A DNA stretch of 64,000 nucleotides from Candidatus Poribacteria bacterium (GTDB taxonomy: Bacteria > Poribacteria > WGA-4E > WGA-3G), in contig OZ251518.1 of the NCBI GenBank assembly GCA_965242965.1, forward strand, positions 1,536,001 through 1,600,000, in the 5' to 3' direction. Made by a program: the position numbers and the translations under genes. This document shows positions 4,018 to 46,839 of this stretch, in pieces. Each line of letters begins with the position of its first letter. Positions within the stretch are counted from its first letter, which is position 1. The notes beneath the pieces are model-generated. The model did not search any database and was not told where the DNA came from. It saw nothing but the letters and a program-made list of their open reading frames with translations.

Positions 4018-4286
4018 GAGGGTGTTTCATAACTCAAGAAACCGTCCGGTTACCGTAGCGCGGGGGCCTGTCCCCCGCGAGCGTCCCCTAGTCCACCTCT
4101 GTAGTTCGGGATCGCCTGATCCCGAACGGGTCAGGATCAGGCGATCCTGACCTACAGGGGTGACGCGGTCTGACAGCCGAACGCGTGGCGAGGGACAGGC
4201 CCTCGCCCTACGTGAAGGGGCGGCGTTTTCTTCACCGGCGCGCGGGGACTGGCACCGCGACGTGGAGCGAGTTATGAAACACCCTC
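4018..4286. mobile_element. MITE-like element (TIR GAGGGTGTTTCATAA) with REP cargo; TSD imperfect
   Basis: Left end GAGGGTGTTTCATAACTC, right end GAGTTATGAAACACCCTC. Confidence 0.8.
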
Positions 4287-4302
4287 ATCTATAAGTTAGA
4301 AC

Positions 4303-5289
4303 TTACTCCTCCAATAGGTTAATAAAAAGTGCCTCTGTCGCCACCGTTTTGGAAATCAACCCTTTTTCATGGGCGAACTTCACGAACGCCGCCCACTTCT
4401 CAGCGGATTGCACCTGCGTTGTGGCGAATACCTCCAACGTATCCCGAAAAGCGAGTTCATCTAACTCCTTGCGGACATCCGGATTCGCCTTGAAATAGAG
4501 TGCCAGTGCCTCGTCCGGGTTCGCTTTAGTGAATTGAATCGCCTCGCGAATCGCCAGCATCAGTTTTTTGGCAGTCATCGGATTCTCCTTCAAAAACGCG
4601 TCGTTGGAGATGATGACGAGTTCGTAATAGTCGGGGATGCCGTGTTCTTCCAGCGGGAAATAATCTGCCGCCGCACCCTCCAATTTCAGTTCGTTAATCT
4701 CGTAATTCCGAAACGGCCCGATAACAGCATCGATTTTGCCTGTCATCAGGGAGGACGAGATATTCGTGCTGACGTTTATCAACTCGTAATCGTCTTCCGC
4801 TAATCCTGCCGCCGCGGCGATAGCATTAAAGAGGAGGACATCCAGCGGTGCGACGGTGTAGCCGATCTTCTTCCCTTTGAAATCTGCAGGCGTTTTAATG
4901 CCGGATTTCTTAAGGAAACTGATGGTGTTAAGCGGCTTTTCTACGAGCAGCCCGATTGCCTTGACAGGCAAGTCCGCCGCACGCGCGATTGTCACACCGT
5001 GTTGGTAATCAATAGCGAACGGGTATTTCCCGGCGGCTACGAGTTTAATCGGCGCGCTCGGGTCGCCGCCCCAGTGGAGTTCCACCTCCAACCCGTGCTT
5101 GGCGAACAGTTTGTTCTCCTGGGCGACGTAGAGTGGGACGTGGTCTGCATTCGGAAACCACTCCAGCAACAGCGTCACTTTCTCTAGTTCACCTTCCGGA
5201 TGGCCATCCGCGTGGATATCAAATTGTCCTATCAATAGGATACCACAACTGATGGCAAAAATCAAACAAATTATAGTTTTCATGAGCAT
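4303..5289 (-). CDS. thiY: ABC substrate-binding protein, NMT1/THI5 (ThiY-like)
   Basis: LEWFPNADHVPLYVA and GIPDYYELV motifs with a signal peptide, in the TPP-regulated operon. Confidence 0.85.
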   Translation of the reverse strand: MLMKTIICLIFAISCGILLIGQFDIHADGHPEGELEKVTLLLEWFPNADHVPLYVAQENKLFAKHGLEVELHWGGDPSAPIKLVAAGKYPFAIDYQHGVTIARAADLPVKAIGLLVEKPLNTISFLKKSGIKTPADFKGKKIGYTVAPLDVLLFNAIAAAAGLAEDDYELINVSTNISSSLMTGKIDAVIGPFRNYEINELKLEGAAADYFPLEEHGIPDYYELVIISNDAFLKENPMTAKKLMLAIREAIQFTKANPDEALALYFKANPDVRKELDELAFRDTLEVFATTQVQSAEKWAAFVKFAHEKGLISKTVATEALFINLLEE

Positions 5290-5349
5290 TCTCCTATTTT
5301 CTTACTCTTATCGTTTGTGTGACTGTGTTTGGACTTGTCCTTTCACAGT

Positions 5350-5436
5350 CCGTAGCGCGAGGGCCTGTCCCTCGCGACCGTTGTTTACTAACTTACCTTT
5401 TCACAGTCCGTAGCGCGAGGGCCTGTCCCTCGCGCC
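5350..5436. repeat. Tandem pair of REP-like units
   Basis: 2x TTTCACAGTCCGTAGCGCGAGGGCCTGTCCCTCGCG...TGTTTACTAACTT. Confidence 0.85.
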
Positions 5437-5473
5437 CCTTGTTTACTAACTTGCCGTGTTTCAACATCCGCGC

Positions 5474-6259
5474 TTATTCTCGCGTTCGGGATTGTCGGGA
5501 TGACGCGCGTCGCCACGGCATGGCGTATGCCTCTATCAGCGTCATCAACCCGAAAAGGCCCACGCCTAAAAACGTTAGACAAAAAATTGCGGCAAAAACC
5601 AGTGAGACTTGGAGTCTCCCGTTGGCATACAACATGAGGTATCCCAAGCCCGCGCTCGCGCCTGCCCATTCGCCGATGACGGCACCGATAGTTGAGACAG
5701 AGATGCCGATTTTCGCACCAGTGAAGATAGAGGGAAGTGCCGAGGGCACATGCACCTTCCACAGAATCTGCCATCGACTCGCTTGCAAAATCCGGAAGAG
5801 GTTCACCGTATCCGGGTCTGACGATTTTAATCCGTCCAACGTATTCAGCACCATCGCGAAGAATACGATGAGCGCAGCCATGATAACTTTCGGCGCAATC
5901 CCGTAGCCGAACCACAGCACCAATAACGGGGCAATCGCGAACACCGGCACCGCCTGTGAACCGATGACATAGGGGTAGAACGCCTTCTCTAGCACCGGGA
6001 ATTCAAACATCAGCACCGCTAGCGGGATACCGACACCCGTGGCGAGGGCAAAGCCGAGCAACATTTCTTGAAGCGTCACCAGCGTATGTTTCAGCAACAA
6101 TGCCCGTTTCTCAAAGAGCGTCACGACGATGTCCGAGGGCGCGGGTAAGATGTAGTGCGGTGTGTTGAAAATATGCACCCATGCCTCCCACGCCCCGAGG
6201 ATGCCGAAAAGGATTGCCCACGGCAACACCGTGGTGACGCGCCTCGCGAACCTTCCCAT
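5474..6259 (-). CDS. thiX: ABC permease (ThiX/SsuC-like)
   Basis: LPAPS, PVFAIAPL, an EAA-like loop and GAVIGEW...GLGY. Alternative GTG start at 6274. Confidence 0.85.
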   Translation of the reverse strand: MGRFARRVTTVLPWAILFGILGAWEAWVHIFNTPHYILPAPSDIVVTLFEKRALLLKHTLVTLQEMLLGFALATGVGIPLAVLMFEFPVLEKAFYPYVIGSQAVPVFAIAPLLVLWFGYGIAPKVIMAALIVFFAMVLNTLDGLKSSDPDTVNLFRILQASRWQILWKVHVPSALPSIFTGAKIGISVSTIGAVIGEWAGASAGLGYLMLYANGRLQVSLVFAAIFCLTFLGVGLFGLMTLIEAYAMPWRRASSRQSRTRE

Positions 6260-6276
6260 AATTGCCCATCCCACAG

Positions 6277-6320
6277 AAAAAGCCGCCTCCTGTTTCTACC
6301 TGCGAGGAAAAGGAGACGGC
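6277..6320 (-). terminator. Hairpin plus U-tract (probable riboswitch expression platform, also pairs an AGGAGG)
   Basis: Minus strand GCCGTCTCCT...AGGAGGCGGC-TTTTT, between the aptamer and thiX. Confidence 0.6.
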
Positions 6321-6461
6321 GTGAGATGTGCAATAAGGGATGCCATGGCAGTGGGAGATACCTCCCGGTTTCAATGCCTTCCCATATTGCTGCAAATCAG
6401 TTTTCTGTCGTTCGCAATGCGTTGTTCAGTAACTGCAAGGATAACGCTTGCGCTGTCCAGA

Positions 6462-6550
6462 AATTTCCCTACGCTGGCATAACCCAGATCAGGTTCAAAG
6501 GGTGTTTTCTCAGCTCTTTGTAGGCGTGAACCTAAATTGAGCACCCCATA
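6462..6550 (-). ncRNA. TPP riboswitch
   Basis: Minus strand GGGGTGCTC...GAGCTGAGAAAACACCCTTTGAACCTGATCTGGGTTATGCCAGCGTAGGGAA matches the THI-box consensus and lies upstream of thi genes. Confidence 0.96.
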
Positions 6551-6564
6551 ATGTCATTGAAAAA

Positions 6565-6594
6565 ATTATATCATAATTTCCAAAATAGTTGCAA
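6565..6594 (-). promoter_or_regulatory. Sigma70-like promoter of the thi operon
   Basis: TTGCAA-18 bp-TATAAT directly upstream of the aptamer. Confidence 0.6.
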
Positions 6595-6627
6595 CAAATT
6601 TTTTTACGGTAGAAACCGCCGTGATAC

Positions 6628-6868
6628 CGTAGCGCGGGGGCCTGTCCCCCGCGATGCCCCAGTTTCATCCGAGCATGGCGAGGGACAGGCCCTCGCCCTA
6701 CGGTATAAATAACCGTCTACGGTGGAAACCGCCGCGATACCGTAGCGCGGGGGCCTGTCCCCCGCGATGCCCCGGCTTATCCAAGTCTGGCGATGGACAG
6801 GCCCTCGCCCTACGGTGGAAATAACAAACCGCCCCGATACCGTAGCGCGGGGGCCTGTCCCCCGCGAT
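6628..6868. repeat. Alternating REP-like units (BIME-like)
   Basis: 3x CCGTAGCGCGGGGGCCTGTCCCCCGCGATGCC alternating with 2 inverted GGCGA(G/T)GGACAGGCCCTCGCCCTAC. Confidence 0.9.
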
Positions 6869-6879
6869 GCCTCTAATCT

Positions 6880-7980
6880 TTATTCAATCGACACCGCCTG
6901 TGCCGGAATTTCCACACCCTGCTCGTTCCAAAATTTATAGGCACCGGAATGGAGCGGCGTGACGAACGCTTTTGGTGCGTTTTCTACCGTCATATCCGCA
7001 GCGGCACCTTGCGTCGCTGTCATAATCGCTTGCATTCCTTCCGCTGCGTAAACGTTCGTGAGGAAATTATAGACGATTTCCGCTGACACATCTTTGTGCG
7101 CGATGAGGAGCGTCGGCATCAGAATCGTATTGACAGCTTCCTCCGGTTGCGGCCGAGTGATACTCGTGAGTGCATCGGCATCTGGTGTCGCCTCGCCGCC
7201 GTATGCGCCTGCAGGAATTGTCCCAGAGAGGTAGAACGGATACTGTTCATAGAAACCTGAGGCTTGAGCAGGCGCGTCCAAATCCAGCATTCTGATGGGC
7301 GTATTCGCTGCAAGTTCACGAATCGCATCGTTTGGAATCCCGACGAGCCAGAGGAACGCGTCTGCTTCGCCACTTTGGAGAGCCATCGCGCCCTCTGTGC
7401 CACCTTTGTAAACCGGCGTAATCTGTCCCCAGATGCCCGCCGCTGTCGCGAGACGTTCCAGTGTTTGTGCCGTGCCGGAACCGAGTCCGCCAGTCGCCAC
7501 ATTTTTACCCGCCAGATCTGCGAATTCCTGAATTTCGCTAACTTCGGTAACTACCAATTGCGCGTACGCGATATAGAGCAGCGTTACGACGCGGACATTC
7601 GTTTTCGCGCCTTCTTCGGCGAAAATTTCCGTGCCGTTGTAACCTAAATATGTCTCGGCGGCGAACGCAAGCCCGAAGGAATTCGGGTTGTCATGGACGC
7701 GGCGCGTGTTTTCGACAGAGCCAGGTGAAGGTTCAGTAACGACTTCCCGGCTCGGCTCCTGTTGCGTCAAAATTCCTGCAATCGCGTTGGCGAACGGTTC
7801 AAAACTGCCGCCCGGAGTCCCCGCCGCAATTGTCAAACGAGGCGCGGTTTCTTCTGACGTTACTGATGTGGTCGGCAGCAGTTCCTTCTGAACCCTATCG
7901 CATCCACTGACGGCGAGAATGAACGCCAACATAATAATAGCGAGGGCTTGCGCGGAGCAACGCCCTAAGTTCATCTGCAT
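6880..7980 (-). CDS. TAXI-family TRAP solute-binding lipoprotein
   Basis: Lipobox VSGC, GTPGGSF, SPGSVEN, GGLGSGT and PLHSGAYKFW. The upstream ORF extension is MITE-derived. Confidence 0.9.
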   Translation of the reverse strand: MQMNLGRCSAQALAIIMLAFILAVSGCDRVQKELLPTTSVTSEETAPRLTIAAGTPGGSFEPFANAIAGILTQQEPSREVVTEPSPGSVENTRRVHDNPNSFGLAFAAETYLGYNGTEIFAEEGAKTNVRVVTLLYIAYAQLVVTEVSEIQEFADLAGKNVATGGLGSGTAQTLERLATAAGIWGQITPVYKGGTEGAMALQSGEADAFLWLVGIPNDAIRELAANTPIRMLDLDAPAQASGFYEQYPFYLSGTIPAGAYGGEATPDADALTSITRPQPEEAVNTILMPTLLIAHKDVSAEIVYNFLTNVYAAEGMQAIMTATQGAAADMTVENAPKAFVTPLHSGAYKFWNEQGVEIPAQAVSIE

Positions 7981-8030
7981 TTTAGCATTCCTTTCGTGTT
8001 TTTTACGTAGGATAAACGCACCACTAATTT

Positions 8031-8293
8031 GAAGGTGTTTCATAAATCGCTTAGCGGGGCGGGGACAGGCCCCGCGCTTCGGTGAAAAAAACGCCTTCCC
8101 TTCAAGTAGGGCGAGGGACAGGCCCTCGCCATGCGTTTGGCTGTCAGACCGCATCACCTTTGTAGGTCAGGATCGCCTGATCCTGACCCGTTCGGGATCG
8201 GGCGATCCCGAACTACAGAGGGGGCAGATACCTGCCGGTAGTCGCCCGCCTCCATGGGCGATAACTACCGAAACGGATTTATGAAACACCCTC
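8031..8293. mobile_element. MITE-like element with perfect 8-bp TSD ACTAATTT
   Basis: TIRs GAAGGTGTTTCATAAAT / ATTTATGAAACACCCTC. ACTAATTT at 8023-8030 and 8294-8301. Confidence 0.88.
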
Positions 8294-8304
8294 ACTAATT
8301 TGCG

Positions 8305-9333
8305 TTAATCCTTTGGTTTAGCATGTTCGGGAATTTCCACTCCCTGCTCACTCCAAAACCGATAGGCACCGGCATGTAGCGGAATGAGAAACGCTTTTGG
8401 GCCGTTTTCTACCGTCATATCTGCAGCCGCCTGATTGAGCTGGAGCATCGCCTGATGTCCCGCCGGCGCATACACATGCTTGAGGAGCGCGTAGATAGTT
8501 TCTTCCGATACATCTTTATGCGCTATCAGCACCGTCGGCATCAAAATCGTCTTCACCGATTCAACTTTTCCTTCGTAGGCTCCCTCCGGCAATGCCCCCG
8601 ATAGATAAAACGGATACTTTTCATAGAATCCGTATTTTTTGGCGGGTGTGTCCAGATCGAGCATCCGAACGGATTTAATGGTTGTCAGTTGAATGATGGC
8701 GTTATTCGGGACGCTGACGAGCCACTGGAAGGCGGCAACTTGGCCATCTTGGAGTGCCTCGGCGGCGGCGGTGCCGCCCTTGTAAATCGGCGTGAACTCC
8801 CCCCAGATACCTGCTGTCCGCGCGAGCCGTTCTAACGTCTGTGCTGTGCCGGAACCGCTGGGACCGCTCGCAACCTTTTTGCCGACAATGTCCTCAAATT
8901 GATGCACATCGCTATTCGCGAGCGTGGAGAGCTGATCATAGGCCATAAAGAGCAGTGTCACCATCCGGATGTTGGTTTTCGGTCCCTCTTCGGCGAAAAT
9001 CTCTTGGCCGTGATAACCTAGATAACTTTCAGAGGCGAAGACAACGCCGAGTGTTTCGGCATCGCCATTGACGCGGCGCGTATTTTCAACGGAACCCGCG
9101 GATGCCTCCACCGATATTTTGAGGTGCGGTTCATGTTGTGCAACGACGCGGCTAATGCCGCCTGCAAACTGCGAGAAACTGCCGCCGATGGAACCGCCCA
9201 TGATGGATAGCCATTCCGTTTTGCGCGTCTCGGAACTTTCTTTTGGGGTATTTTTCTTATCTCCACATCCGCAGAACGCGCTGAGTCCTATTAGGACGAG
9301 AAATATCCACAAAGCGTGAGGCTTTTTTGGCAT
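8305..9333 (-). CDS. TAXI-family TRAP solute-binding lipoprotein (paralogue)
   Basis: FCGC lipobox, GGSIGGSF, SAGSVEN, GPSGSGT and PLHAGAYRFW. Confidence 0.9.
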   Translation of the reverse strand: MPKKPHALWIFLVLIGLSAFCGCGDKKNTPKESSETRKTEWLSIMGGSIGGSFSQFAGGISRVVAQHEPHLKISVEASAGSVENTRRVNGDAETLGVVFASESYLGYHGQEIFAEEGPKTNIRMVTLLFMAYDQLSTLANSDVHQFEDIVGKKVASGPSGSGTAQTLERLARTAGIWGEFTPIYKGGTAAAEALQDGQVAAFQWLVSVPNNAIIQLTTIKSVRMLDLDTPAKKYGFYEKYPFYLSGALPEGAYEGKVESVKTILMPTVLIAHKDVSEETIYALLKHVYAPAGHQAMLQLNQAAADMTVENGPKAFLIPLHAGAYRFWSEQGVEIPEHAKPKD

Positions 9334-9363
9334 AATTGCTCCTTCCGAATGAGTTATGCAGTA

Positions 9364-9392
9364 ATTATACCACGAAAGAAGCGCGATTGCAA
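9364..9392 (-). promoter_or_regulatory. Sigma70-like promoter
   Basis: TTGCAA-17 bp-TATAAT with an extended -10 TG. Confidence 0.65.
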
Positions 9393-9496
9393 ATAAAATT
9401 AATTTAGCAATTTGGGTTTTTTGTCAACGTTTTTTAGAGATATTTAGTTTTCGGTTTTGCTATCAATGTTGAAAATGGATAACGGTTCTCCTTTTT

Positions 9497-9974
9497 GTAG
9501 TGCAGGATCGCCTGATCCTGCCCGGTTTGAGATCAGGCGATCTCAAACTACAGAGATGGGAGGACTGATACCCGTTTGAGATCCGGCGATCTCAAACTAC
9601 AGAGGTGGCGAGGGACAGGCCCTCGCCCTACGGTGAAGCGGAGGCGGCCTTGACAACCGTAGCGCGGGGGCCTGTCCCCCGCGATGCCGCTAGTTGTCTG
9701 AATCAGGATTTACAAGATTATAGGATTTGCCGGATTATCTTCTTTGAGTTCTACGATAACGGAAACGCCTCGGGCACGGCGAGTGACAGGTCCAGGCGAT
9801 TCCGTTCTCCTATTCTATAGTTCGGGAGCACCCGCTCCCGAACGGGTCAAGAGAAGACACGCCTGCCCGAGAGAATAAGCCCACCGCTGTAGTTTGTGCG
9901 TGGTTGAAGGTCTGGCAGCATCAAGACAAGGAGGTCTCTCCTACAGGGAAGACATTGAGTTATGAAACACCCTC
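9497..9974. repeat. REP-like mosaic ending in a single right TIR
   Basis: Several GTAG hairpins and TATGAAACACCCTC at 9961-9974. No left TIR seen. Confidence 0.85.
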
Positions 9975-9982
9975 ATTTTAAT

Positions 9983-10011
9983 TTGACAAACAATGTGTTT
10001 TGTGATATTCT
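9983..10011 (+). promoter_or_regulatory. Sigma70-like promoter
   Basis: TTGACA-17 bp-TATTCT. Confidence 0.6.
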
Positions 10012-10360
10012 TAATATCAGCCTGTTGGCTGAGAATACCACCAACAGCATCCCATCGCTTCAGCGTTGGGAGTATGTTAAAGGTTGAGACGTTCTCAACC
10101 GAGAATAACCTCTTTTTTCACGTACATCGGGTGCGGTGATGATTTTATCAATTCAACATTTCATCACCACTCTCCGATGTCAAATCCCGACCTATTCTTG
10201 AGATGGGTAAACGAGAAAAGGGAACCTTGACAAGAACCGCGCCGTTCCGATAAACAGATCGGATATAGGGGTTCCCTGCAAGGGAGTCCCTATACCCCAT
10301 CGCTTACCGCAATCAGAATTTGCGATACAGCGTCTTTTTTCCAAAAGGAGGCATTGCCCA

Positions 10361-11032
10361 ATGCGAAAAATAGCGATTTTCACGCTAATAATAGTTGTTG
10401 TCATAGCGGGTTGGATGCTTTACCTAGAGCATGATAAAAAGACTTTTATGGAAAGTCTGCCGAAACCACCCGAGCCAGTGAATCCCCGTGTGAACAATTC
10501 TGCCACAGCGGATTCGCCGCCGTTCCAGACCGGCACCAGCACCGGCGAGACTAGCACCGACACTGGCGAAGTCTCATCGGCTGTGCCGCAGGAATCGGTT
10601 CCAGCGAACAGTGACACCCCTGTCCAAGAGAACGAGGACATCACGGTGGGTGATGAGTGGAGAATTGACGATTCACTCCCGCGCGACGAGCCGTCCGATC
10701 TGTGGCAACAACCAGAGAAGTCGGTGGACAGAACGCCACATTTAGAATGGTCTCCAGACGAGCGAGCCGATGCGATGCGAGATTCGTATCTTGAAATGTT
10801 CGGCAATATTCCGCAAGTTTATGTTGCATCCGAATACCAGCGAAAACTTTTCAAAAACGAACGGATGACTATTGACGAACATATTGCTGGCAAAGAGGCC
10901 CTCTTCTACCTCTATCCTCAGCAAAATCAACTCATGTTGGAATTGCTCAGGACGATGAAGGCAGCGGGTATCACTCACTTGGACTACGAGGTTGAGTTTA
11001 ATATATCAGAGTTCGCTGACGACGAAGACTAG
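10361..11032 (+). CDS. Hypothetical protein with N-terminal membrane anchor and low-complexity linker
   Basis: AGGAGG RBS, 223 aa, hydrophobic N-terminus and a Pro/Ser/Thr-rich linker. Confidence 0.8.
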   Translation: MRKIAIFTLIIVVVIAGWMLYLEHDKKTFMESLPKPPEPVNPRVNNSATADSPPFQTGTSTGETSTDTGEVSSAVPQESVPANSDTPVQENEDITVGDEWRIDDSLPRDEPSDLWQQPEKSVDRTPHLEWSPDERADAMRDSYLEMFGNIPQVYVASEYQRKLFKNERMTIDEHIAGKEALFYLYPQQNQLMLELLRTMKAAGITHLDYEVEFNISEFADDED

Positions 11033-11050
11033 AACGCTTATGCCACGGTA

Positions 11051-11207
11051 CCGTAGGAGAGACCTCCTGGTCTTGATGCAATACCGTAGGCGCGCCCGCC
11101 CGGTCTCTCCTACTGGGAAGACATTGAGATATGAAATACCCTCAGATGAAATAGGATGGCCGCAGAAAATGAACCCGGTATGCGCGGTTTTCAACCGCGC
11201 ATACCGG
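11051..11207. repeat. REP-like units, degenerate right TIR and palindrome CCGGTATGCGCGGTT-TTC-AACCGCGCATACCGG
   Basis: Read directly from the sequence. Confidence 0.8.
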
Positions 11208-19159: not shown

Positions 19160-19478
19160 GAGGGTGTTTCATAAATCGCTGTAGGAGAGACCTCCCGGTC
19201 TCGATGCAATAGGGCGGTGCACCTACCGGGGCAGCGGCGGCAGAAAGTCCCCCTTCATCGTAGGGCGAGGGCCTGTCCCTCGCCATCGCTCGCGCGCCGG
19301 GTCCTGTAGTTCGGGATCGCCTGATCCCGAACCGTTTGTGATCAGGCGATCACAAACTACAGAGAGGGAAACACACATCGTGACGATGGAGATCGCGGGG
19401 GACAGGCCCCCGCGCTACGGGAACATCAAGACCAGGAGGTCTCTCCTACGGTATTGCATCGAAATATGAAACACCCTC
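19160..19478. mobile_element. MITE-like element with perfect 8-bp TSD AGTTAAAT
   Basis: TIRs at both ends. AGTTAAAT at 19152-19159 and 19479-19486. Confidence 0.9.
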
Positions 19479-23466: not shown

Positions 23467-23945
23467 GAGGGTGTTTCATAACTCGCTCAACGTCGCGGTG
23501 ACAGTCCCCCGCGCTGCGGTGAAAAATGGGGAATTGCCGGTAGGAGAGACCTCCTAGTCTCGATTTCTTCCGGTAGGAGAGACCTCGGGTCTCGATGTTC
23601 CCGTAGCGCGGGGGCCTGTCCCCCGCGAGCGTTGGGCCCCATTCTGTAGGTCAAGATCGCCTGATCTTGACCCGTTCGGGATCAGGCGATCCCGAACTAC
23701 TTTTATAGGGTCCGGGCATGGCGAGGGACAGGCCCCCGCCCTACGGTGAGGGGGACTGTTTTTTCCCGTAGCGCGGGGGCCTGTCCCCGAGATCGCAGCA
23801 TGGCGAGGGACAGGCCCTCGCCCTACGATGAAGGGGGACCTTCTAGTGCCGCGGCCCGGTAGGCGCGCCGCCCTATTGCATCGAGACCGGGAGGTCTCGC
23901 CTACGGGGACATCGCTCGCATCGAGACCGGGAGGTCTCTCCTACC
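23467..23945. repeat. Left TIR followed by a long REP mosaic
   Basis: GAGGGTGTTTCATAACTC at 23467 followed by about 10 hairpin modules. Confidence 0.88.
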
Positions 23946-24011
23946 GGGGAAACGGAATCGTTCGGGATTTCGCTAAACCATTTTTACAAAACGTTGATAG
24001 GAGGCGGAGAA

Positions 24012-24542
24012 GTGATTGGGAAAAACGTTGTCATAGCGGTGCTGCTTTCTTGTCTAATGCTGGCAGTCGTGCTAATCGGTTGCGGTGAAGATGCCGATGA
24101 ACCGTCTGCGGAAGACCTGGTCGGCACATGGGAACCCGTTGTGCATAGTGACGAAACGCCGAACGACGCGGTCCAGTTGACTGAGGTTGTTTTTGGTGCC
24201 GATAGCGCATTGTTCTGGAAAGTCCACGTGAAAGGGGAAGAGGATGGCATTGCTTTCAAGATTGATGTGACGATGAAAGGCACTTATGTTGTGTCGGGCT
24301 TGAGTTTGACATTCGTGGGTAAATCTGTGGAGACAAAAGCGGATTTTACTTTCCCACCGCCAGCTGAAGAAATTGAATCCGAAGTGCTTATTGGGCTTAC
24401 TAGAGAGTTGTCCAATCAGGCGAGGACAGATCTTGAACAAGACTTTGAATCAGAAAACTGGAATGGCACATGGCGTTTGGCAGGAGACATCCTCACCTTA
24501 ACTCGCGATGATGGCACCGAGATTGTCTTGAGAAGAAAATAA
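24012..24542 (+). CDS. Lipoprotein, lipocalin-like beta barrel
   Basis: AGGAGG RBS with GTG start, lipobox LIGC, LVGTWE and GTWRLAGDILTLT. Confidence 0.75.
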   Translation: MIGKNVVIAVLLSCLMLAVVLIGCGEDADEPSAEDLVGTWEPVVHSDETPNDAVQLTEVVFGADSALFWKVHVKGEEDGIAFKIDVTMKGTYVVSGLSLTFVGKSVETKADFTFPPPAEEIESEVLIGLTRELSNQARTDLEQDFESENWNGTWRLAGDILTLTRDDGTEIVLRRK

Positions 24543-24636
24543 ATTGGCTCTCGGCGGTGGTTAAAAACGAACAACGGGCATCGCTGCCCGTTGTCCACCG
24601 TCGCCCTCGCCCCACGGGAAAAAACGGCACTTCCCC

Positions 24637-24926
24637 GTAGGGCGAGGGCCCTCGGATGCCACACGCGCATCCGAGCGGGTTCCCCTCGCCATCGTCCGCG
24701 CGCCAGGCCCTGTAGGTCAGAATCGCCTGATCCTGACCCGTTCGGGAGCGGGCGCTCCCGAACTACAGAGATGGGCCCGATGCCTGCCGGTATTCGCCCG
24801 CCTTCCAAGGCGGGATAACTACCGAAACGGAGTTATGAAACACCCTCAAATAACGTAGTGCGGGGGCCTGTCCCCCGCATGCCTCAACTGTTCCGAATAG
24901 CGTAGTGCGGGGGCCTGTCCCCCGCA
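24637..24926. repeat. REP mosaic with right TIR ending at 24847
   Basis: TATGAAACACCCTC plus GTAGTGCGGGGGCCTGTCCCCCGCA units. Confidence 0.88.
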
Positions 24927-25424: not shown

Positions 25425-25710
25425 GAGGGTGTTTCATCTGCCATCGTCCCGATGTGTGTTTCCCCTTCTGTAGTTTGTGATCGCCTGATCACAAACGGGT
25501 CAGGATCAGGCGATCCTGAACTACAGAGTCTGGCGCGCGGACGCTGGCGAGGGCCTGTCCCTCGCCCTACGGGGAAGTGCCGTTTTTTCCGTAGCGCGGG
25601 GGCCTGTCCCCCGCGATCGTTGGATTGCGCGGACGATATTGAGACAGGGAGGGCTCTCCTACTGCATTGAGATAGGGAGGACTCTCCTAACAGATTTATG
25701 AAACATCCTC
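25425..25710. mobile_element. MITE-like element with perfect 8-bp TSD AGGTTAAT
   Basis: GAGGGTGTTTCAT...ATGAAACATCCTC. AGGTTAAT at 25417-25424 and 25711-25718. Confidence 0.9.
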
Positions 25711-25814
25711 AGGTTAATAAACTTCAATTTCAATACGTTTAATAGTATACCACAAGTGGAGACGAATTTCAAGTTTTTTTGCATTTTAATCGTTTTTTCT
25801 CCGTTTTTCTCCAT

Positions 25815-26582: not shown

Positions 26583-26616
26583 ATTGTCCTCTGAATTTTT
26601 CGGTAAGTAGTTTGAT

Positions 26617-26995
26617 GAGGGTGTTTCATAAATCCCTCGCCATGTGTTTTGCTGTCAGACTTCATCACCCCTGTAGGGCAAGATCAGACGATCTCGACCT
26701 GTTCGGGTGCAGGCGCACCCGAACTACAGAGGTCTGCCCGGTGCCTGCCGGTAGGCGGGACATCCTTGTCCCGATACGGTGGGCATCGAGACCGGGAGGT
26801 CTCTCCTACCGGGGACAAGGAAAGGTGCACCCGAACTACAGAGGTCTGCCCGGTGCCTGCCGGTAGGCGGGACATCCTTGTCCCGATACGGTGGGCATCA
26901 AGACCAGGAGGGCTCTCCTACCGGGGACATCGCTTGCATCGAGAACGGGACAGCGCGCCGACTGGAAGCAATCGAGACCGGGAGGTCTCTCCTAC
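26617..26995. repeat. Left TIR plus REP mosaic with internal ~110-bp tandem duplication
   Basis: 2x GCACCCGAACTACAGAGGTCTGCCCGGTGCCTGCCGGTAGGCGGGACATCCTTGTCCCG... Confidence 0.88.
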
Positions 26996-27035
26996 CGGGG
27001 AGGAGGAAAACTGAATCGTTCTGGAGATATTCCTC

Positions 27036-32781: not shown

Positions 32782-33082
32782 GAGGGTGTTTCATAAATCA
32801 ATGTCTTCCCGTTAGGAGAGACCTCCCAGTCTCGATGCCCACCGTATCGGGACAAGGATGTCCCTCCTACCGGGCGCGCACCGGGCCCACCTCTGTAGTT
32901 CGGGATCGCCTGATCCCGAATAGGTCAGGATCAGGCGATCCTGACCTACAGGGGTGAGGCGGTTTGAGAGCCAAACGCATGGCGAGGGACAGGCCCTCGC
33001 CCTACGTGAAGGGGAAGCGTTTTTTTCATCGTAGCGCGGGGGCCTGTCCCCCGCGACGTTGAGCGATTTATGAAACACCCTC
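32782..33082. mobile_element. MITE-like element (both TIRs; TSD degenerate)
   Basis: GAGGGTGTTTCATAAATC...GATTTATGAAACACCCTC with flanks TATTAAAT / ATTTAGAT. Confidence 0.8.
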
Positions 33083-40553: not shown

Positions 40554-40562
40554 GCCTTCCTC

Positions 40563-40772
40563 CTAAAATCGCTTTGGGTTCCGTGGCTGCGCCTGTGCGC
40601 TGGGCTCTGGATTGCCTTGCGTTGGCTCGTTCACAGGTAGGTTCGTATTACCGTAACTGCCCGTTTCTTCTGTCGCTTCGGACATAGGTGAAAGCAACGG
40701 ATCGCTCTCACATCCAAGCAACACGATACTGCTGGCTATTATGAAGAATAGCACCAAAAGTCTCAAATTCAT
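40563..40772 (-). CDS. Small lipoprotein (69 aa)
   Basis: MNLRLLVLFFIIASSIVLLGC lipobox, ending 10 bp before the TonB receptor. Confidence 0.7.
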   Translation of the reverse strand: MNLRLLVLFFIIASSIVLLGCESDPLLSPMSEATEETGSYGNTNLPVNEPTQGNPEPSAQAQPRNPKRF

Positions 40773-40795
40773 TGCCAATATCCTAAGGTTTAATT

Positions 40796-41078
40796 GAGAG
40801 TGTTTCGTAAATCGTTTTCCCCGGTAGGAGAGACCTCCTGGTCTCGATGCATCGCGCATGCGAGAGACCGTAGTTCGGGAGCGCCTGCTCCCGAACGGGT
40901 CAAGATCAGGCGATCTTGACCTACAGAGAAGGGCGGCTCGGTCACCGTAGGGCGAGGGCCTGTCCCTCGCCATCGTTCGCACACCCCAACGCTCGCGGGG
41001 GACAGGCCCCCGCGCTACGGGCACATCGAGACCAAGAGGTCTCTCCTACGGTATTGCATCGAAATATGAAACACCCTC
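40796..41078. mobile_element. MITE-like element with perfect 8-bp TSD GTTTAATT
   Basis: GAGAGTGTTTCGTA...TATGAAACACCCTC. GTTTAATT at 40788-40795 and 41079-41086. Confidence 0.9.
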
Positions 41079-41084
41079 GTTTAA

Positions 41085-42521
41085 TTACAAAGATTCTAGA
41101 AACGCGATCAGCGCATCGCGTTCCGGTTGCGACATCTGTTCAACGGCGCGCCGCGATACCTCCGCTTCTCCACCGTGCCAGAGAATCGCTTCCATTAAGT
41201 TGCGCGCTCTGCCATCATGGAGGAAGTTCGTGTGGCCATTCACCCGCTGCACCAAACCGATACCCCACAACGGCGGTGTCCGCCACTCTGTCCCACTCGC
41301 GTGAAAATCGGGACGGTTGTCTGCCAAACCGGGGCCCATGTCGTGCAATAACAGATCCGTATACGGATGGATTGTCTGATTGCTGACAGATGGCACGCCG
41401 GGTAAAACGCCTGTCCTAAACGTCGGAACATGACAACTCGCGCACTGTGCTTGCGCAAAAAGACGTTCGCCTTGCTGGACGAGAGGATTGTCAACATTAC
41501 GCCGCGCTGGCACCGCCAACGTTTGCACATAAAATGTCACTACCTCTAGGATTTCGTCGCTGACTTCCGGTGTTGCTCCTGCACTCGGGGTTTCGTTCCT
41601 GCCGGGATATTGCCCCACCGAACTTTCGAGTAAGAACAGCGAAGTGGTGATACCCATGTCGTCGTGATATGCCGAAGCTACCTGCTGGAGAAGCGTCGGC
41701 TGGTTCGCCTTCCACCCGAAGCGGCCGAGGGCTTTCCGCTGCTGCACCACATCCCACACATAATTCGGCTTGCCGGAGATACCATCACCGTCGCTATCCG
41801 CCTCGTCTGCATAGGCGAGGATGGATTCTTCCGGAATGGCTTCTAGCAGTCCGAGCCCGAAGACAACTGGCGCGACGCGCGGCGACACTTCAACGTCATC
41901 TGGCAGTGGACGATAGGTTTCCGTGAACGTGTAATTCGGATAACTGAGACGCACACGCGTGCCATCTGCCATCGTCAGCGGTTCCTCAGTCCAGTCTATC
42001 TGGACGGTGCCTTCCGGCTGTATTCCGACGATGGCTCGGTTATTCAATTGTGTGCCGAATCCCGGTACCGGCACCGGCGGTTTCCCTTCCAACGCGGTAT
42101 CAGGCCGCGGTAAACTCAGTCGAAAGAGCAATGATACCAACTCCTCGTTAGGACGAGGCGGTCTGCCCCGGCCATCGCGCGCGTGGCAGTTGATGCACGA
42201 AACGTTGTTATAGATAGGCCCTAACCCCGGATTCACCACCGCAGGCGCAGTTACAAACACTGCCTCAAATTCAACGTCGCCTTCCAGATGTTTTGCAAAT
42301 GCTGCTTCACTCAAATTCGGCGCGGGCACCGAGAAGGCGTGGCTTGACGCGTCAAAAACAGTCGTTTCTCCACCGGAAAGCGCGCCGGTAGAAAGGACAG
42401 GCATTGACTCCACGGCGATGGGTGATTCGGCATCACACGCGCTCAGCAGAAACGGCACGATGAAGGTTAAGGATAGGCACAGCCTATAAACAGTTTGCAG
42501 ATGTTTCATATCTTTAAACAT
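41085..42521 (-). CDS. Di-heme oxidoreductase family lipoprotein (DHOR/DUF1111)
   Basis: Two CxxCH motifs (CINCH, CASCH), GRFGWKA, TDLLLHDMG, WRTPPLWG and LHDGRAR. Confidence 0.92.
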   Translation of the reverse strand: MFKDMKHLQTVYRLCLSLTFIVPFLLSACDAESPIAVESMPVLSTGALSGGETTVFDASSHAFSVPAPNLSEAAFAKHLEGDVEFEAVFVTAPAVVNPGLGPIYNNVSCINCHARDGRGRPPRPNEELVSLLFRLSLPRPDTALEGKPPVPVPGFGTQLNNRAIVGIQPEGTVQIDWTEEPLTMADGTRVRLSYPNYTFTETYRPLPDDVEVSPRVAPVVFGLGLLEAIPEESILAYADEADSDGDGISGKPNYVWDVVQQRKALGRFGWKANQPTLLQQVASAYHDDMGITTSLFLLESSVGQYPGRNETPSAGATPEVSDEILEVVTFYVQTLAVPARRNVDNPLVQQGERLFAQAQCASCHVPTFRTGVLPGVPSVSNQTIHPYTDLLLHDMGPGLADNRPDFHASGTEWRTPPLWGIGLVQRVNGHTNFLHDGRARNLMEAILWHGGEAEVSRRAVEQMSQPERDALIAFLESL

Positions 42522-42616
42522 TTTTTGGGAGGGAACAACCTAATGGCTGCTCCCTTCCAAAACGAAATAGCCCACGGCATGGCGAGGGACAAGCCCCGCG
42601 CTGCCGGTTTCAAGGA

Positions 42617-43705
42617 TTAGTTAAACTCACTCGCTTGGACAAGCGGGAGGATATCTTGTTCTAGCGTCTGCTGCACCTTGCTGACAGCGTCAATTGCCGC
42701 TTGCACAGCGGCACGGTTGGTAGTAATTGCGTCGCGGAACGGAGCCGGAATAGCACCGATGGTATTGATGGCTGTCTGCACCTCTGCTTGGAAGCGCGCG
42801 TCCAACGCCGCGTCTTTGCTGTTCACAAATTCGTTGAGTCCCTGTCCATCGCCCACGAATTTCCCCATATAGACATTCTGGATGCCTCGGATATTGTCTT
42901 GGAAATCCGTGATGGAATTGAAACTAAACTGCGATTCGACAAGAGTCGTGTCCGATTCGTTGTAAGGGTCGGAGATTTTGCCGTTGGCGACTTCATCGGC
43001 GATGGTTATCATGCCGTTCACCATCTCCTGCACGGCGGAACTCTGCGATGGGTAAATCGCGCTACCGGTTCCAGCCTGTGCGACGGCACTGCTAAAATTC
43101 TCGCCTTCCGGTGCCCACGCGAGACGCAATTGCGCGGTACTCGCCTTGAGATTCTCTGTCGTTGAGACGAGGTATTCCAATTCACGTTCGGTGATGTCCG
43201 ATGCCTCGCGCTTGTCACCTTCGCGGAACAGCAAGAATTCAATGGTGTGGAACCCTTTCTGCGTATCTTCCAAACCGCTGACAAAGTCCACCGTGAGCAT
43301 ATCGCTGCTGTCCAAAACGGATTGGAGATTCACGTGATCTACGGGCCAACTATCCAGTGCCGGATCCAACCCTTGGGTATCAACCGGCCCAAATAGGAAC
43401 GATTCGCTCTGTTCCCAAGGCGTTCGTGTCGCTTTCCAAGCGGTTTGCGCTTTCGCCAGATTCGCCGGTGAGGTATCCGCCGCCAACGCTTTGACAGCCG
43501 TCAGCAGTTCACCTGCCTTGGCATCTAAATCGGCGTAGGTAGCCAAGACGACGGTGTTGGCGAAATCGTTGAGCATCGTGCCGGCTTCAAAAGTTTCCGC
43601 GCTGGATTCTACTTCAGCATCATCGTCGTCGCTGCCACATCCGATAACAGCGGCGAATGCAAGTAGTAAGCAAGAGAACAATGTCCAAATTTTATAGCAT
43701 TTCAT
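42617..43705 (-). CDS. Imelysin-family iron-regulated lipoprotein (IrpA-like)
   Basis: Lipobox VIGC, WEQSESFLFGP, LDSWP, GFHTIE (GxHxxE) and ESQFS. Confidence 0.9.
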   Translation of the reverse strand: MKCYKIWTLFSCLLLAFAAVIGCGSDDDDAEVESSAETFEAGTMLNDFANTVVLATYADLDAKAGELLTAVKALAADTSPANLAKAQTAWKATRTPWEQSESFLFGPVDTQGLDPALDSWPVDHVNLQSVLDSSDMLTVDFVSGLEDTQKGFHTIEFLLFREGDKREASDITERELEYLVSTTENLKASTAQLRLAWAPEGENFSSAVAQAGTGSAIYPSQSSAVQEMVNGMITIADEVANGKISDPYNESDTTLVESQFSFNSITDFQDNIRGIQNVYMGKFVGDGQGLNEFVNSKDAALDARFQAEVQTAINTIGAIPAPFRDAITTNRAAVQAAIDAVSKVQQTLEQDILPLVQASEFN

Positions 43706-43749
43706 AAGGTTTATCTTGCCTATCATGGATAGGCGTTAGAGCCTCCGAA

Positions 43750-44961
43750 TTAATATTGAAACCCAAAACCGAGTGAAAAGGTATTCTCCCGATTTTTATC
43801 CGTTGTGGCGAGTCGCCGAAGCGAGTAGTGTCCTTTGAAAACGAGTTGCGGATGCGCGTGGTAGTTCACGCCGAACGTCCACGTGGTGCGTTCCCACCGC
43901 GGGTTGTCAAAGATAACGCCTTCAACGCTTGCCATTGTATCGTAATAATCGTAACGCGCGAACACATCGCATCTCGTGTCGGTAGGCGCGGGCAGGAAAA
44001 GGGACAAGACATCGTAACCTGCCTCCAGATACCATCCTAAGGCGGTGCTGCCGATAGGTGTCCGCTTCACATTGAGGTTATTAGAGAGCGCGCGGTTGAC
44101 TTTGGAGAGCCTGTCTGCGTTTTCTAGCGTTCCCCAAAGCACCAAACCGCGCACCTTCACGGCGTTCACCTCGTAAAACCCGTGCAGGCTGACAATCCCG
44201 ACGTTGGCAGTGAAGTCGACATCGGGTTTCGGACGATTGGCGGCGGTGTCGCCATAATAGCCGGAGATGCCGACGGTTGCGCCTTCCCGCAGCCTGTAAT
44301 CGAGTCGTCCGACAAACGCGGGTGCCTCGGCATTGATTGTTTCAAACCGCAATTGGTGCCCCGGCACTATCCAATGCCGCGAACTAAACCCGGTTGAATC
44401 CAATCCGTTGATGACTTGCGCCTGATAATTCAAGGCACCGAGTGTGCCGAAGATTTCAACGCCTGTCTCGTGCCAAATCGTCGGGATGAGGTGCGTCTCT
44501 GCCTCCGGACGCGTTGTGGTGAAGTAGTGCTGCGGCCGGTGCCGTTTTGCGACAAGCCCCACCGGGACTATAATATGTCCGACGCGGAGGTTGAGCGCGG
44601 GTTTGAGAGAGAACACGGCCGCTAGTTTCTCAACGATGACTTCGCCGCCTTTTTCTATTTCTGTCTCAAATTCGCCGAACTCCTCGAATTTATCGAATTC
44701 CATCGTGCTGCCGGTGCCGCCGTGCTCAAGTTCCAGTTCCGCTTCAAGGCGGATGGTATCGTTGATACGGTATTTCGGCGCGATGACGAGGCGTTCCACG
44801 TCAATAGCGGCGCGTCTACCCGGGTCAAGTTCCCAATCGAAATGGGAATAGTGAATCACACCGTAACCTGAAACCGAAAACGGATTTGATGCTGCAGGGG
44901 CAGGCGCGCCTATCCAAATGAAAATTCCCCAAATGGTGAGGAAAGCCAACTGTTTTTTCAT
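43750..44961 (-). CDS. Outer-membrane beta-barrel/porin associated with imelysin
   Basis: Signal peptide, ELELEHGG, EKGGEV, IPTIWHETG and C-terminal GFGFQY. Start at MKKQLAF. Confidence 0.8.
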   Translation of the reverse strand: MKKQLAFLTIWGIFIWIGAPAPAASNPFSVSGYGVIHYSHFDWELDPGRRAAIDVERLVIAPKYRINDTIRLEAELELEHGGTGSTMEFDKFEEFGEFETEIEKGGEVIVEKLAAVFSLKPALNLRVGHIIVPVGLVAKRHRPQHYFTTTRPEAETHLIPTIWHETGVEIFGTLGALNYQAQVINGLDSTGFSSRHWIVPGHQLRFETINAEAPAFVGRLDYRLREGATVGISGYYGDTAANRPKPDVDFTANVGIVSLHGFYEVNAVKVRGLVLWGTLENADRLSKVNRALSNNLNVKRTPIGSTALGWYLEAGYDVLSLFLPAPTDTRCDVFARYDYYDTMASVEGVIFDNPRWERTTWTFGVNYHAHPQLVFKGHYSLRRLATTDKNRENTFSLGFGFQY

Positions 44962-44976
44962 AAATAATTCTATTTT

Positions 44977-45158
44977 GATAATGAATCTCATTATCAAAAT
45001 AACCATCGTTCGTTTCGTTAGACAGATATAGAAGAGCGGATATGGAAAACCGCCCTAAATGATAATGAGTCTCATTATCTTAACGGTTTCACGATTGCCG
45101 CGTTTATCAGAATTTTCTGCGAGCAGCGCGAAATTCCGCGATAACGAGTCTCATTATC
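44977..45158. promoter_or_regulatory. Three Fur boxes
   Basis: GATAATGAATCTCATTATC (44977-44995), GATAATGAGTCTCATTATC (45061-45079) and GATAACGAGTCTCATTATC (45140-45158). Confidence 0.92.
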
Positions 45159-45161
45159 TTA

Positions 45162-45263
45162 ATTATACCCATATTTTTCGCGTTTGTCAAGAAAAAAACG
45201 CGAAAAATGGTAATTAATGCCATTTATGCTATTAATTATACCCACATTTTTCGCGTTTGTCAA
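45162..45263 (-). promoter_or_regulatory. Two tandem perfect-consensus sigma70 promoters
   Basis: TTGACA-17-TATAAT at 45190-45162 and again at 45263-45235. Confidence 0.88.
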
Positions 45264-45315
45264 GAAAAAAGCAATTTTTTTTGCAATTTTCCGATTTTGT
45301 CAGAGATGCCGTTCT

Positions 45316-46149
45316 TTATTCTTCGACATCAATGAGCAATTCGCGGCCGTTTAACGGTTGCACCGGCCGATTGTTGCGATGGATAATGGCTGCGAACGCG
45401 GCAATTTGCGCTTCCGACATCTCAATAGGTGCCGTCATCACAAACCAATTGACTCCCTCCGAGCATGGAGGCGTAGTCAACGAACCTTCATAACGGTAGG
45501 TATCCCGCGCGCTCGGCAGCAGTTCTTCAACGTTGAAAGTAACGTGCTCAACGCGTTTTGTTTCGCCTGCGGCGGTTGGCAGATGCGCCCAGATCTCGTT
45601 AAAAGCGGCATTTTCACTGCCGTCCTCGATTAGCACCCCGATGACAGCCAGCGTGCCATCTTCACTTTTATGAACGAGGTGCATTTCCATATCAAACAGC
45701 TCGCCTGCAACCGTGTGTTCACTCGGCGTGTGGAAGTGGAATTGCAGGAGTTGATACCGCGTTCCGTCGACCTCAATCGAACTTCCTGCGTCGGGCTCTG
45801 CCGGATACCCCACCTCAATTGTATGGCCGTTGTGACGAATGTCTAGCGTTGTCGGTTGATAATTGAAGGTGATAGCCGGGAGTTCTGTCGGCGTTGCGTT
45901 CACCAAGTCGATGGGAGATTGGTGCATTCCCACCGCACACAAACTATATCCCGAATTGAGTTTACCCCAAACGTTAGGACCGTTTTCTGCTTCGTAGCCC
46001 CATTCCACCTTGTGGACATCGGATGTCACATTGATGGCTTTCTGGCAACTGGTCGTCCACATAAGCATCGCTATGATAACTCCTAGTTTTGCGAGATGCG
46101 CTTGCAAGCGAAAGGCTGCAAGGCAACGGTGATTTGACTTAATACGCAT
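45316..46149 (-). CDS. cah: Alpha-class carbonic anhydrase (exported)
   Basis: WGY, QSPIDL, NGHTI, QFHFHTPSEH, EMHLVH, YEGSLTTPPCSEGV and NNRPVQPLNGR. Confidence 0.95.
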   Translation of the reverse strand: MRIKSNHRCLAAFRLQAHLAKLGVIIAMLMWTTSCQKAINVTSDVHKVEWGYEAENGPNVWGKLNSGYSLCAVGMHQSPIDLVNATPTELPAITFNYQPTTLDIRHNGHTIEVGYPAEPDAGSSIEVDGTRYQLLQFHFHTPSEHTVAGELFDMEMHLVHKSEDGTLAVIGVLIEDGSENAAFNEIWAHLPTAAGETKRVEHVTFNVEELLPSARDTYRYEGSLTTPPCSEGVNWFVMTAPIEMSEAQIAAFAAIIHRNNRPVQPLNGRELLIDVEE

Positions 46150-46282
46150 AACAAATTTCCTCCTGAGAAAACGGAATCCGTGGAAAATCTGAGTCGTTTC
46201 CGCTCCCTCTTCAGTGGCGTTTAATCTCTATCTGAGTATAACCTGAAATGTCTGTTTTGTGCAAGGAAAAAATTATTTGATT

Positions 46283-46839
46283 GAAGGTGTTTCATATCTC
46301 GATGGCTTCCCCGTAGGAGAGACCTCCTGGTCTCGAATTCTTCCGGTAGGAGAGACCTCCCGGTCTCGATGTTCCCGTAGCGCGGGGGCCTGTCCCCCGC
46401 GATGGCTCAAAACCGTTTTTTTCACCGTAGCGCGGGGGCCTGTCCCCCGCGAGCTCCATCGTCAAGATGCCATCTTAGGTCCTTTAGGACCTTAATGTCT
46501 ATAGAAAAACGTGTCGTTACGTTTTCAAGGTCCTTTAGGTCCTTAATAAAAAACACGCGCCGCATCAAAGCATATTAAGGACCTAAAGGACCTTAAATCT
46601 CTTCACGTCGCCGACTGCTATAGACATTAAGGTCCTACGGACCTAAGAGACGTTATTTCCACCGTAGCGCGGGGGCCTGTCCCCCGCGATGGTTGGGATG
46701 CGCGAGGCATGGCGAGGGAAACCCTCTCGCATGCGCGTATAGCATGCGAGGGCCCAAGCCCTACGGTGCGGGGTGGCATTTTTTCCCCGTAGCGCGGGGG
46801 CCTGTCCCCGCGACGTTGAGCGATTTATGAAACCCCCTC
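46283..46839. mobile_element. Large TIR-bounded mosaic (557 bp) containing an ATAG-family element; no TSD
   Basis: GAAGGTGTTTCATA...TATGAAACCCCCTC. Confidence 0.75.

Follow-up and report, generated by a model that had tools for sequence, protein, structure and literature searches.

A 64,000-nucleotide stretch of a sponge-symbiont genome from an uncultivated lineage of Poribacteria (positions 1,536,001-1,600,000 of a 5.66-Mb contig, hereafter the window) carries a series of short intergenic segments that are bounded by constant inverted ends and filled with GTAG-headed hairpins. These elements are real miniature transposons, namely MITEs (miniature transposable elements with inverted repeats), and their interiors are built almost wholly from repetitive extragenic palindromes (REPs) that are far more abundant outside them. 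Both kinds of element are known; their nesting, one selfish element inside another, is unusual. The history that we consider likely is a burst of Type II MITEs filled with REPs, in which the parent insertion sequence (IS) was lost and the interiors were remodelled in place. The genome assembly consists of two contigs, with 54% G+C and 94.66% marker completeness.

The ends were searched for as the 14-bp sequence GAGGGTGTTTCATA with at most two mismatches, and dinucleotide shuffles served as controls. The window contains 25 matches, compared with 0.33 on average and at most 2 in the shuffles. An earlier note on this DNA had described seven segments bounded by such ends, and all seven were recovered at the same coordinates, each border being GAGGGTGTTTCATA or a variant with one or two mismatches. 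The four perfect 8-bp flanking duplications that it had listed were also found, at 8031..8293 (263 bp; ACTAATTT), a member of the largest near-clonal family; at 19160..19478 (319 bp; AGTTAAAT), with a C-type hairpin beside both ends; at 25425..25710 (286 bp; AGGTTAAT); and at 40796..41078 (283 bp; GTTTAATT), the left end of which has two mismatches. In the remaining three pairs, the flanking 8-mers differ by three to four mismatches: the duplications of 32782..33082 (301 bp; TATTAAAT / ATTTAGAT) and 46283..46839 (557 bp; ATTTGATT / GTTTAATC) are decayed, and 4018..4286 (269 bp), which carries founder-like cargo (modules A, D1, D2, and B), has no recognisable target duplication between its flanks CTATATCT / ATCTATAA. 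None of the seven is assigned to a strand. All are located between genes, and, as had been described, their interiors consist of GTAG-headed hairpin modules whose order varies from segment to segment.

In the whole genome, 1025 ends were detected (530 of them perfect 14-mers), including 298 adjacent inward-facing pairs less than 1 kb apart (the paired shells), and 397 ends are unpaired. Conservation of the ends reaches inward to approximately position 17-20 (GAGGGTGTTTCATAAaTCg.T), giving approx. 17-18 conserved bases, and the outward flank shows A.TTAA.T. A perfect 8-bp duplication flanks 64 of the 298 pairs, compared with 0.58 expected when right flanks are shuffled among elements, which bears out genome-wide the excess of duplications over chance that had been anticipated from the window. 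With up to one mismatch the number is 100 of 298, compared with 4.6 in partner shuffles. Duplications abutting the ends are far above chance at 8-9 bp only, those of 9 bp forming a second class (26 perfect; 28 as an offset class), and 158 of the 298 pairs carry a duplication of 8 or 9 bp that has no more than one mismatch, whereas the four shuffled classes sum to approx. 8. The target consensus, ANTTAANT, is palindromic; among the 64 perfect duplications its counts are A(55) n T(52) T(54) A(55) A(47) n T(50), with 85% A+T. Shell lengths are not constrained: pairs have a median length of 368.5 bp, extend from 60 to 959 bp in the histogram, and in 59% of cases measure 320 bp or more. The length of 263-319 bp shared by six of the seven window segments, to which attention had been drawn, is thus a local accident, with 25.5% of pairs genome-wide lying between 260 and 319 bp. 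Paired shells make up 2.1% of the genome; they are small and have no coding capacity, their interiors being 98% dispersed repeats. Together, the inverted ends, the 8/9-bp duplications at a palindromic AT-rich target, and the empty sites in relatives described below identify the shell as a transposase-made MITE, as had been proposed.

An IS with the same ends exists in sister genera. When 176 genomes of the phylum were scanned for exact 13-mers of the end, 472 were found in this genome, 3 and 1 in two congeners, and a few to approx. 40 in many genomes of two sister genera (g2 and g5), where they typically occur in pairs approx. 1.1 kb apart. In particular, a 1112-bp copy in genome G116 (L018) has identical ends, a perfect duplication (AAGTAATT), and an open reading frame (ORF) of 337 amino acids. 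The ORF passes the threshold of Pfam DDE_Tnp_1_3 (PF13612; 35.2 bits, cut-off 27). Its best match in NCBIfam is IS982 (NF033520), with a score of 54.8 bits that is far below the family cut-off of 130, and the scores for IS5 (20.2 bits) and IS1182 (19.4 bits) are below cut-off as well. Two of the six IS copies fetched have perfect 8-bp duplications. The six copies in G116 have transposase genes 99-100% identical to the query, and the seven in G161 have transposase scores identical among themselves. In the database, 1307 homologues of the transposase, mostly of 332 amino acids, were found; where named, they are entered as 'hypothetical protein [Candidatus Poribacteria bacterium]'. The DDE-type IS that the earlier note had predicted from a resemblance of the ends to those of IS5 and IS1182 thus exists in sister genera as an intact 1.1-kb IS982-like element, the transposase of which has weak similarity to IS5 and IS1182.

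A search for such an IS in the present genome, which had been suggested as a check, yielded no intact copy and relics only. In this genome, PF01609, PF13737, and PF13612 have no match over cut-off. The best tblastn match is a 66-amino-acid fragment at 41% identity, with a 37-amino-acid fragment at the same locus; six loci retain IS bases 1-130/147 at 70-75% identity; and IS-like subterminal sequence still stands behind 44 of the 1025 ends. No transposase was recognisable among the multi-copy ORF families listed, whose opening residues were judged by eye with no family search. Likewise, the G116-type query found no transposase gene in the congeneric genomes G001 (a different species, represented by an 86%-complete draft) and G002. 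Since the transposase is absent from this genome, the DDE layer is taken to be extinct here, and the shells are probably fossils left by an IS that the genome has since lost. Short derivatives of the IS in the sister genera (L104, L105) are plain internal deletions without REPs; REP-filled versions were seen only in this genus, that is, in this genome and in G001 (L106, L108, and L109).

Transposition of the IS200/IS605 type, catalysed by HUH enzymes, makes no 8- or 9-bp target duplications, and the elements carry precisely such duplications. Moreover, identical ends bound a DDE-encoding IS in sister genera, and the gene for the REP-associated tyrosine transposase (RAYT) in this genome is bordered by REP arrays, not by shell ends. 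It is therefore extremely improbable that the ends belong to the REP/RAYT world and were moved by a tyrosine (HUH) transposase instead of a DDE enzyme, even though they always lie beside GTAG hairpins in a genome that has a RAYT, and even though RAYT-type genes set between long inverted repeats that have no relation to GTAG repeats are described in the consulted part of Di Nocera et al. 2013 (PMC3733652).

Seven families of GTAG-headed hairpins were defined from the window and counted at up to three mismatches. These highly repeated imperfect palindromes total at least 8201 genome copies: 2627 of family A, 1961 of B, 1825 of C, 1361 of D1-D3, which form inverted doublets, and 427 of E. The share of each family that lies inside paired shells is 5-33%. 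Among 2743 REP clusters, 2032, with 5907 modules between them, are in contact with no end, 599 with one, and 86 with two. As 5907 of the 8201 modules are in end-free clusters, most REPs are not cargo, and the shell is not the main vehicle of REP cassettes that it had been suggested to be. The cargo, in turn, is ordinary repeat sequence of the genome: repeats also found more than 700 bp from any end account for 83% of interior bases, 15% match other shells only, and 1.9% are unique. The RAYT of this genome, a protein of 154 amino acids, scores 120.6 bits against NF047646 (cut-off 80), and D-type REP arrays border its gene on both sides; the cargo is thus rightly described as GTAG hairpins of the REP/REPIN kind (REPINs being REP doublets) in a genome with a RAYT gene. 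A RAYT gene flanked by each family had been suggested as a thing to look for; families A, B, C, and E have no RAYT of their own, and PF01797 matches two loci only in the genome, the RAYT and an IS605-like element. The 368-amino-acid open frame at the RAYT locus (L002 1417-2523; G000:C1 ~3147499-3148605) is mostly read-through of the upstream REP array, and the real RAYT gene corresponds to its last 154 amino acids. The IS605-like element (L001; G000:C1:3123891-3127127) has a 408-amino-acid TnpB-type ORF, and its Y1 transposase gene (TnpA) is broken by two TGA codons.

The interiors had been held not to be clonal, which is correct for the order of modules and has to be qualified by the existence of a founder family. 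Some 207 module orders occur among the 298 elements, and 49 occur among the 64 with perfect duplications. Clustering at ≥90% coverage and ≥85% identity gives 242 clusters, 229 of them singletons, and at ≥95% identity and ≥95% coverage there are 297 clusters, just one of which holds two elements. At 80%/80%, 201 elements are singletons and one cluster holds 67. The largest tight cluster comprises 25 elements of approx. 266 bp with the plan end, A, linker, B, linker, D2/D1 doublet, linker, further hairpin, end. Conservation in this cluster is a uniform 92% over ends, linkers, and hairpins, which indicates that it was copied as a unit. Its private linkers have 207, 234, and 210 genome copies and the further hairpin has 83; 74-81% of the linker copies (74-100% for linkers and hairpin together) lie within 600 bp of an end, and at least one founder linker is present in 167 of the 298 shells. 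A 266-bp founder with a fixed cassette thus gave rise to a family of approx. 200 copies.

Inherited structure is also visible next to the ends. By subterminal sequence, 309 ends belong to type 1, 153 to type 2, 314 to the C-hairpin type, 44 to the IS-like type, and 18 to type D, and 187 are of other kinds. The C hairpin adjacent to an end points its GTAG towards that end in 330 cases and away from it in 3, at a few discrete spacings; fixed orientation and discrete spacing indicate an inherited structure, not random invasion. End types are freely combined (1-2 in 69 pairs, 1-C in 55, 1-other in 49, and C-C in 38), and the share of pairs with duplications is similar across the combinations, e.g., 34 of the 55 type 1/C pairs. 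Within the shells, A-linker-B and D2/D1 doublets recur, with uncertain orientation calls for A and B; the arrays may be mosaics of the kind known as bacterial interspersed mosaic elements (BIMEs).

Comparison with relatives provides the time scale. Empty orthologous sites had been named as a check on the MITE interpretation, and they were found: both G001 and G002 are without the window elements 19160 and 25425, and G001 has a single AGGTTACT at the 25425 site. These empty sites in congeners indicate that insertion was recent on the genus scale. G001 in turn has an element (L108) at a site that is empty in this genome. Logan contigs from four runs, which break at almost every repeat, yielded a single clean empty site, a single indel, and no comparison of cargo. 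In a contig of run X5, position 25425 is joined to 25720, so that 294 bases are omitted, i.e., the 286-bp element and one 8-bp copy of its duplication. The block 26617..27031, in which a left end on the + strand precedes a REP array that has no right end, is not present in contigs of X5, X8, and X11 or in G001; the X5 contig that omits the 25425 element also skips 26601-27031 (joint 26600->27035). A metagenome scan with an ABC-type ATPase gene returned distant homologues only (26-49% identity) and no close strains.

Filled sites at which the cargo differs, likewise foreseen in the earlier note, come from five G001 loci with ends at 0-1 mismatch, three of which coincide to the base with occupied sites in this genome (for L111 of G001 and L112 of G002, no single orthologous site could be assigned). 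At all three, flank and one end or duplication are kept and the interior differs. Site B measures 863 bp in G001, with the perfect duplication AGTTAATT; in this genome there are approx. 480 bp between the same flanks, with the duplication AGTTAATT/ACTTAATT, a degenerate left end of another subterminal type, and approx. 70 alignable bp at the right. Site A has a common right end and flank, with matched flanks 97-100% identical and an unrelated interior; in this genome the left end and approx. 21 bp of flank are gone, and other repeats are in place. At site C, the end and the adjacent C hairpin are missing from this genome, and part of the array behind them is kept at approx. 90% identity. Cargo and even ends therefore change in place after insertion, and such change also accounts for the many solitary ends. 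The state of the duplications is in line with this: a divergence of approx. 5% per site would leave approx. 47% of 8-bp duplications perfect and 31% are observed (8 and 9 bp), so that additional rearrangement is needed, with which the ends lost at shared sites are consistent.

These sites could instead have received independent insertions of MITE variants at a preferred target, and the diversity of interiors would then reflect old subfamilies that decayed separately. The target preference is indeed strong and palindromic, the site B duplication AGTTAATT fits the consensus, and L108, present in G001 only, indicates that insertion continued after the lineages had split. However, three of five G001 loci coincide to the base, which is far above chance for approx. 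500 insertions in 5.7 Mb, and the end that is missing from this genome at site A, as at site C, went together with flanking or adjacent sequence, as expected of rearrangement and not of fresh insertion. We therefore regard independent insertion as very unlikely.

The shared sites also bear on whether the shell is an active vehicle, its cargo reshuffled in donor copies before transposition, and the main route by which REPs spread. The 49 module orders among the 64 elements with perfect duplications, and the end types that are freely combined in pairs many of which have duplications (34/55 for type 1/C), would agree with shuffling before insertion; moreover, the founder cassette was indeed spread by the shell, and the absence of the 25425 element from the closely related strain in run X5 indicates that its transposition was fairly recent. 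Diversity that arose before insertion is, however, at odds with the three shared sites, where cargo differs behind the same flank and one end or duplication. In addition, no transposase was found in this genome, the single two-element cluster among 297 (≥95%/≥95%) leaves room for almost no recent copies, and the 5907 modules in clusters without an attached end argue against a main route. An active, REP-spreading shell is thus unlikely.

A further alternative is that ends and hairpin arrays are kept by selection for a function in the host, for example in terminating transcription or stabilising mRNA, or as a site to which a protein binds. The position of the elements between genes and the 530 perfect 14-mers among 1025 ends would fit such a role, although the detection limit of two mismatches inflates the apparent conservation of ends. 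Ends of the founder family are no better conserved than its linkers, ends have been lost at shared sites, and relatives are without elements at the same sites; maintenance by selection for host function is accordingly a highly improbable explanation.

The preferred history, a REP-filled MITE burst that outlived its IS, may thus be outlined as follows. The parent would have been a 1.1-kb IS encoding a DDE transposase of 332-337 amino acids (Pfam DDE_Tnp_1_3, IS982-like), and the MITE would be of Type II, having only the terminal 17-18 bp in common with it. The parental transposase would insert at ANTTAANT and duplicate 8, sometimes 9, bp. In this lineage, two IS ends may have come to enclose a piece of REP array, creating the founder, which, together with a few variants carrying an end-fixed REP hairpin, would have been amplified in trans to approx. 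300 complete copies and approx. 1000 ends. The parent IS would then have decayed, leaving the shells as immobile fossils, the interiors of which, like all REP arrays of this genome, appear to gain, lose, and swap modules in place. Such turnover would give each locus its own cargo behind unchanged ends and leave many ends solitary. Candidate agents of the remodelling are the single RAYT, slippage between hairpins, and recombination or conversion between copies. The two-layer system that the earlier note had proposed, in which a DDE-mobilised shell carries REPs that are continually rearranged, thus survives in its DDE-made shell and in cargo that changes after insertion; its DDE layer is extinct in this genome. 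A functional coupling of the DDE shell with the HUH-type REP system, beyond mere nesting, is decidedly unlikely. If it were true, the end-adjacent hairpins (330 versus 3) could belong to the substrate of transposition or help to regulate it, RAYT-driven turnover within the shells could be a built-in diversifier, and a single composite element would be the joint product of two transposition chemistries that are unrelated to each other.

Several points weigh against this history. The three shared sites lie within approx. 10 kb of one G001 draft contig and are not independent samples, and at site B different variants may have inserted independently into one hot target. Cargo that already differed before each insertion would explain just as well the 49 orders counted in the 64 elements whose duplications are perfect. 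Moreover, orientation is not called with full reliability for the A and B hairpins, which are near-palindromic, and the seven-family catalogue is incomplete, covering approx. 29% of interior bases; the count of 207 orders is therefore approximate. The absence of a transposase rests on one assembly of 94.66% marker completeness, in which a copy on an unassembled plasmid or in another strain would go unseen. Finally, only the D-type family flanks the RAYT, and action of this protein on the shell hairpins is a candidate mechanism.

The earlier count of about ten unpaired ends in the window is close to the 11 ends that lie outside the seven pairs. One of the 11 has its partner just past the window edge: 63669..64000 (+ strand) belongs to a 523-bp MITE, of which it is the left part, and the right end of that MITE is 191 bp outside the window. 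Two others flank a gene-holding segment of 1.38 kb; this inward-facing pair (23467..24847, 1381 bp, no strand assigned) has a REP array at each end and the ORF 23994..24542 between them. It is without a target duplication and therefore probably represents two half elements, and the ORF (182 amino acids) is an ordinary one. At the corresponding site G001 has 124 bp only, and it retains there the terminator-like hairpin that stands 3' of the ORF in this genome. Solitary ends lie on the - strand at 9961..9974, 11130..11143 (one mismatch), and 60088..60101, and on the + strand at 47083..47096 (one mismatch) and 62596..62609; two further unpaired ends of the same orientation, 40 bp apart, occupy 55067..55120 (55067-55080 and 55107-55120, - strand).

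Gene-carrying transposons with these ends were considered and rejected: pairs 0.9-6 kb apart include two with perfect and two with one-mismatch duplications, approximately the chance number by a rough estimate, and no transposase ORF was found between such distant ends. A gene of approx. 3 kb, encoding a single-chain methylase/restriction-type protein of 1023-1063 amino acids with an NPPY motif, occurs at seven loci by megablast, including G000:C1:188773-192892 (L004), and forms a 10-member ORF cluster. As shell cargo this restriction-modification gene was also rejected, the seven loci not being consistently bracketed by inward-facing ends.

Repeats of other families accompany the shells. The cargo of 46283..46839 includes a nested, AT-richer palindromic element (AGGTCC motifs) at 46470-46650, built on AGGTCCTTTAGGTCC-type motifs; its 14-mer AGGTCCTTTAGGTC has 557 genome copies, and the element is also present in the G001 elements at shared sites. 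A small palindrome with the core CTCGGATGCC...GCATCCGAG lies within the loop of an A- or B-type REP hairpin at 24640-24693 and in L106 of G001, a hairpin inside a hairpin, and its 14-mers have approx. 355-379 genome copies. At the 32782 site, G001 contains different repeats. Opposite window positions ~25711-25740, it has a different repeat of approx. 210 bp (L010 540-830), bounded by inverted ends of its own and containing hairpins of other families (CCGGTAGGCGCGG...); this repeat is absent at that site here, and the repeat families of the two species thus differ in part.

What is held about the movement of REPs and the pace of turnover in their arrays still comes largely from indirect evidence, and to our knowledge REP mobility has never been measured directly. 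Approximately 300 containers with sharp, datable borders allow change behind a fixed border to be separated from change by transposition, so that dated, bounded shells could serve as natural traps for measuring REP mobility and turnover; such change is already apparent at the three shared sites. A large MITE burst that outlived its parent IS is also documented here, in an uncultivated sponge-symbiont lineage, and the genome combines a very high REP load with only one RAYT. To annotators, these elements explain the mosaic look, different each time, of almost all intergenic spacers in this genome.

With regard to known systems, the parent resembles the IS982 family and the IS5-IS1182 superfamily in its length of approx. 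1.1 kb, its single DDE transposase ORF, and its PF13612 match over cut-off; it differs from IS982 in its score (54.8 versus 130 bits), and may differ also in ends that start with GAGGG and in its 8/9-bp duplication at ANTTAANT. Very small repeats reportedly occur inside MITEs and other repeats of Nostoc; these are said not to be RAYT-linked GTAG REPs, and the MITE interiors there reportedly are not built almost entirely from them. The literature searched contained no account of MITEs filled with REPs, nor any of repeats in Poribacteria.

Type II MITEs such as Chunjie of Geobacter and QMITE1/2 of Coxiella, as presented in the consulted sections of the review by Minnick (2024, PMC10969869), are like the shells short and non-coding, with inverted ends and target duplications; in both, only the ends are common with an autonomous IS, size and sequence are variable, and many truncated copies lack ends. 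In contrast to the MITEs in those sections, the interior here is almost wholly made of independent GTAG REP/REPIN families that occur in far greater numbers outside, and the genome lacks the parent IS. None of the words 'nested', 'cargo', 'REPIN', and 'modular' occurs in that review. With the REP/BIME/REPIN and RAYT systems, as far as they are covered by the consulted parts of Bertels & Rainey 2011 (PMC3116915) and Di Nocera et al. 2013 (PMC3733652), this genome shares many GTAG-headed hairpin families, inverted doublets, extragenic higher-order arrays that vary between relatives, and a RAYT gene flanked by the arrays of one family. It differs from the systems described there in having at least 8201 copies of the seven counted families with one RAYT found, and in that a subset of its REPs is packaged between DDE-type ends with target duplications and has been copied with the package.

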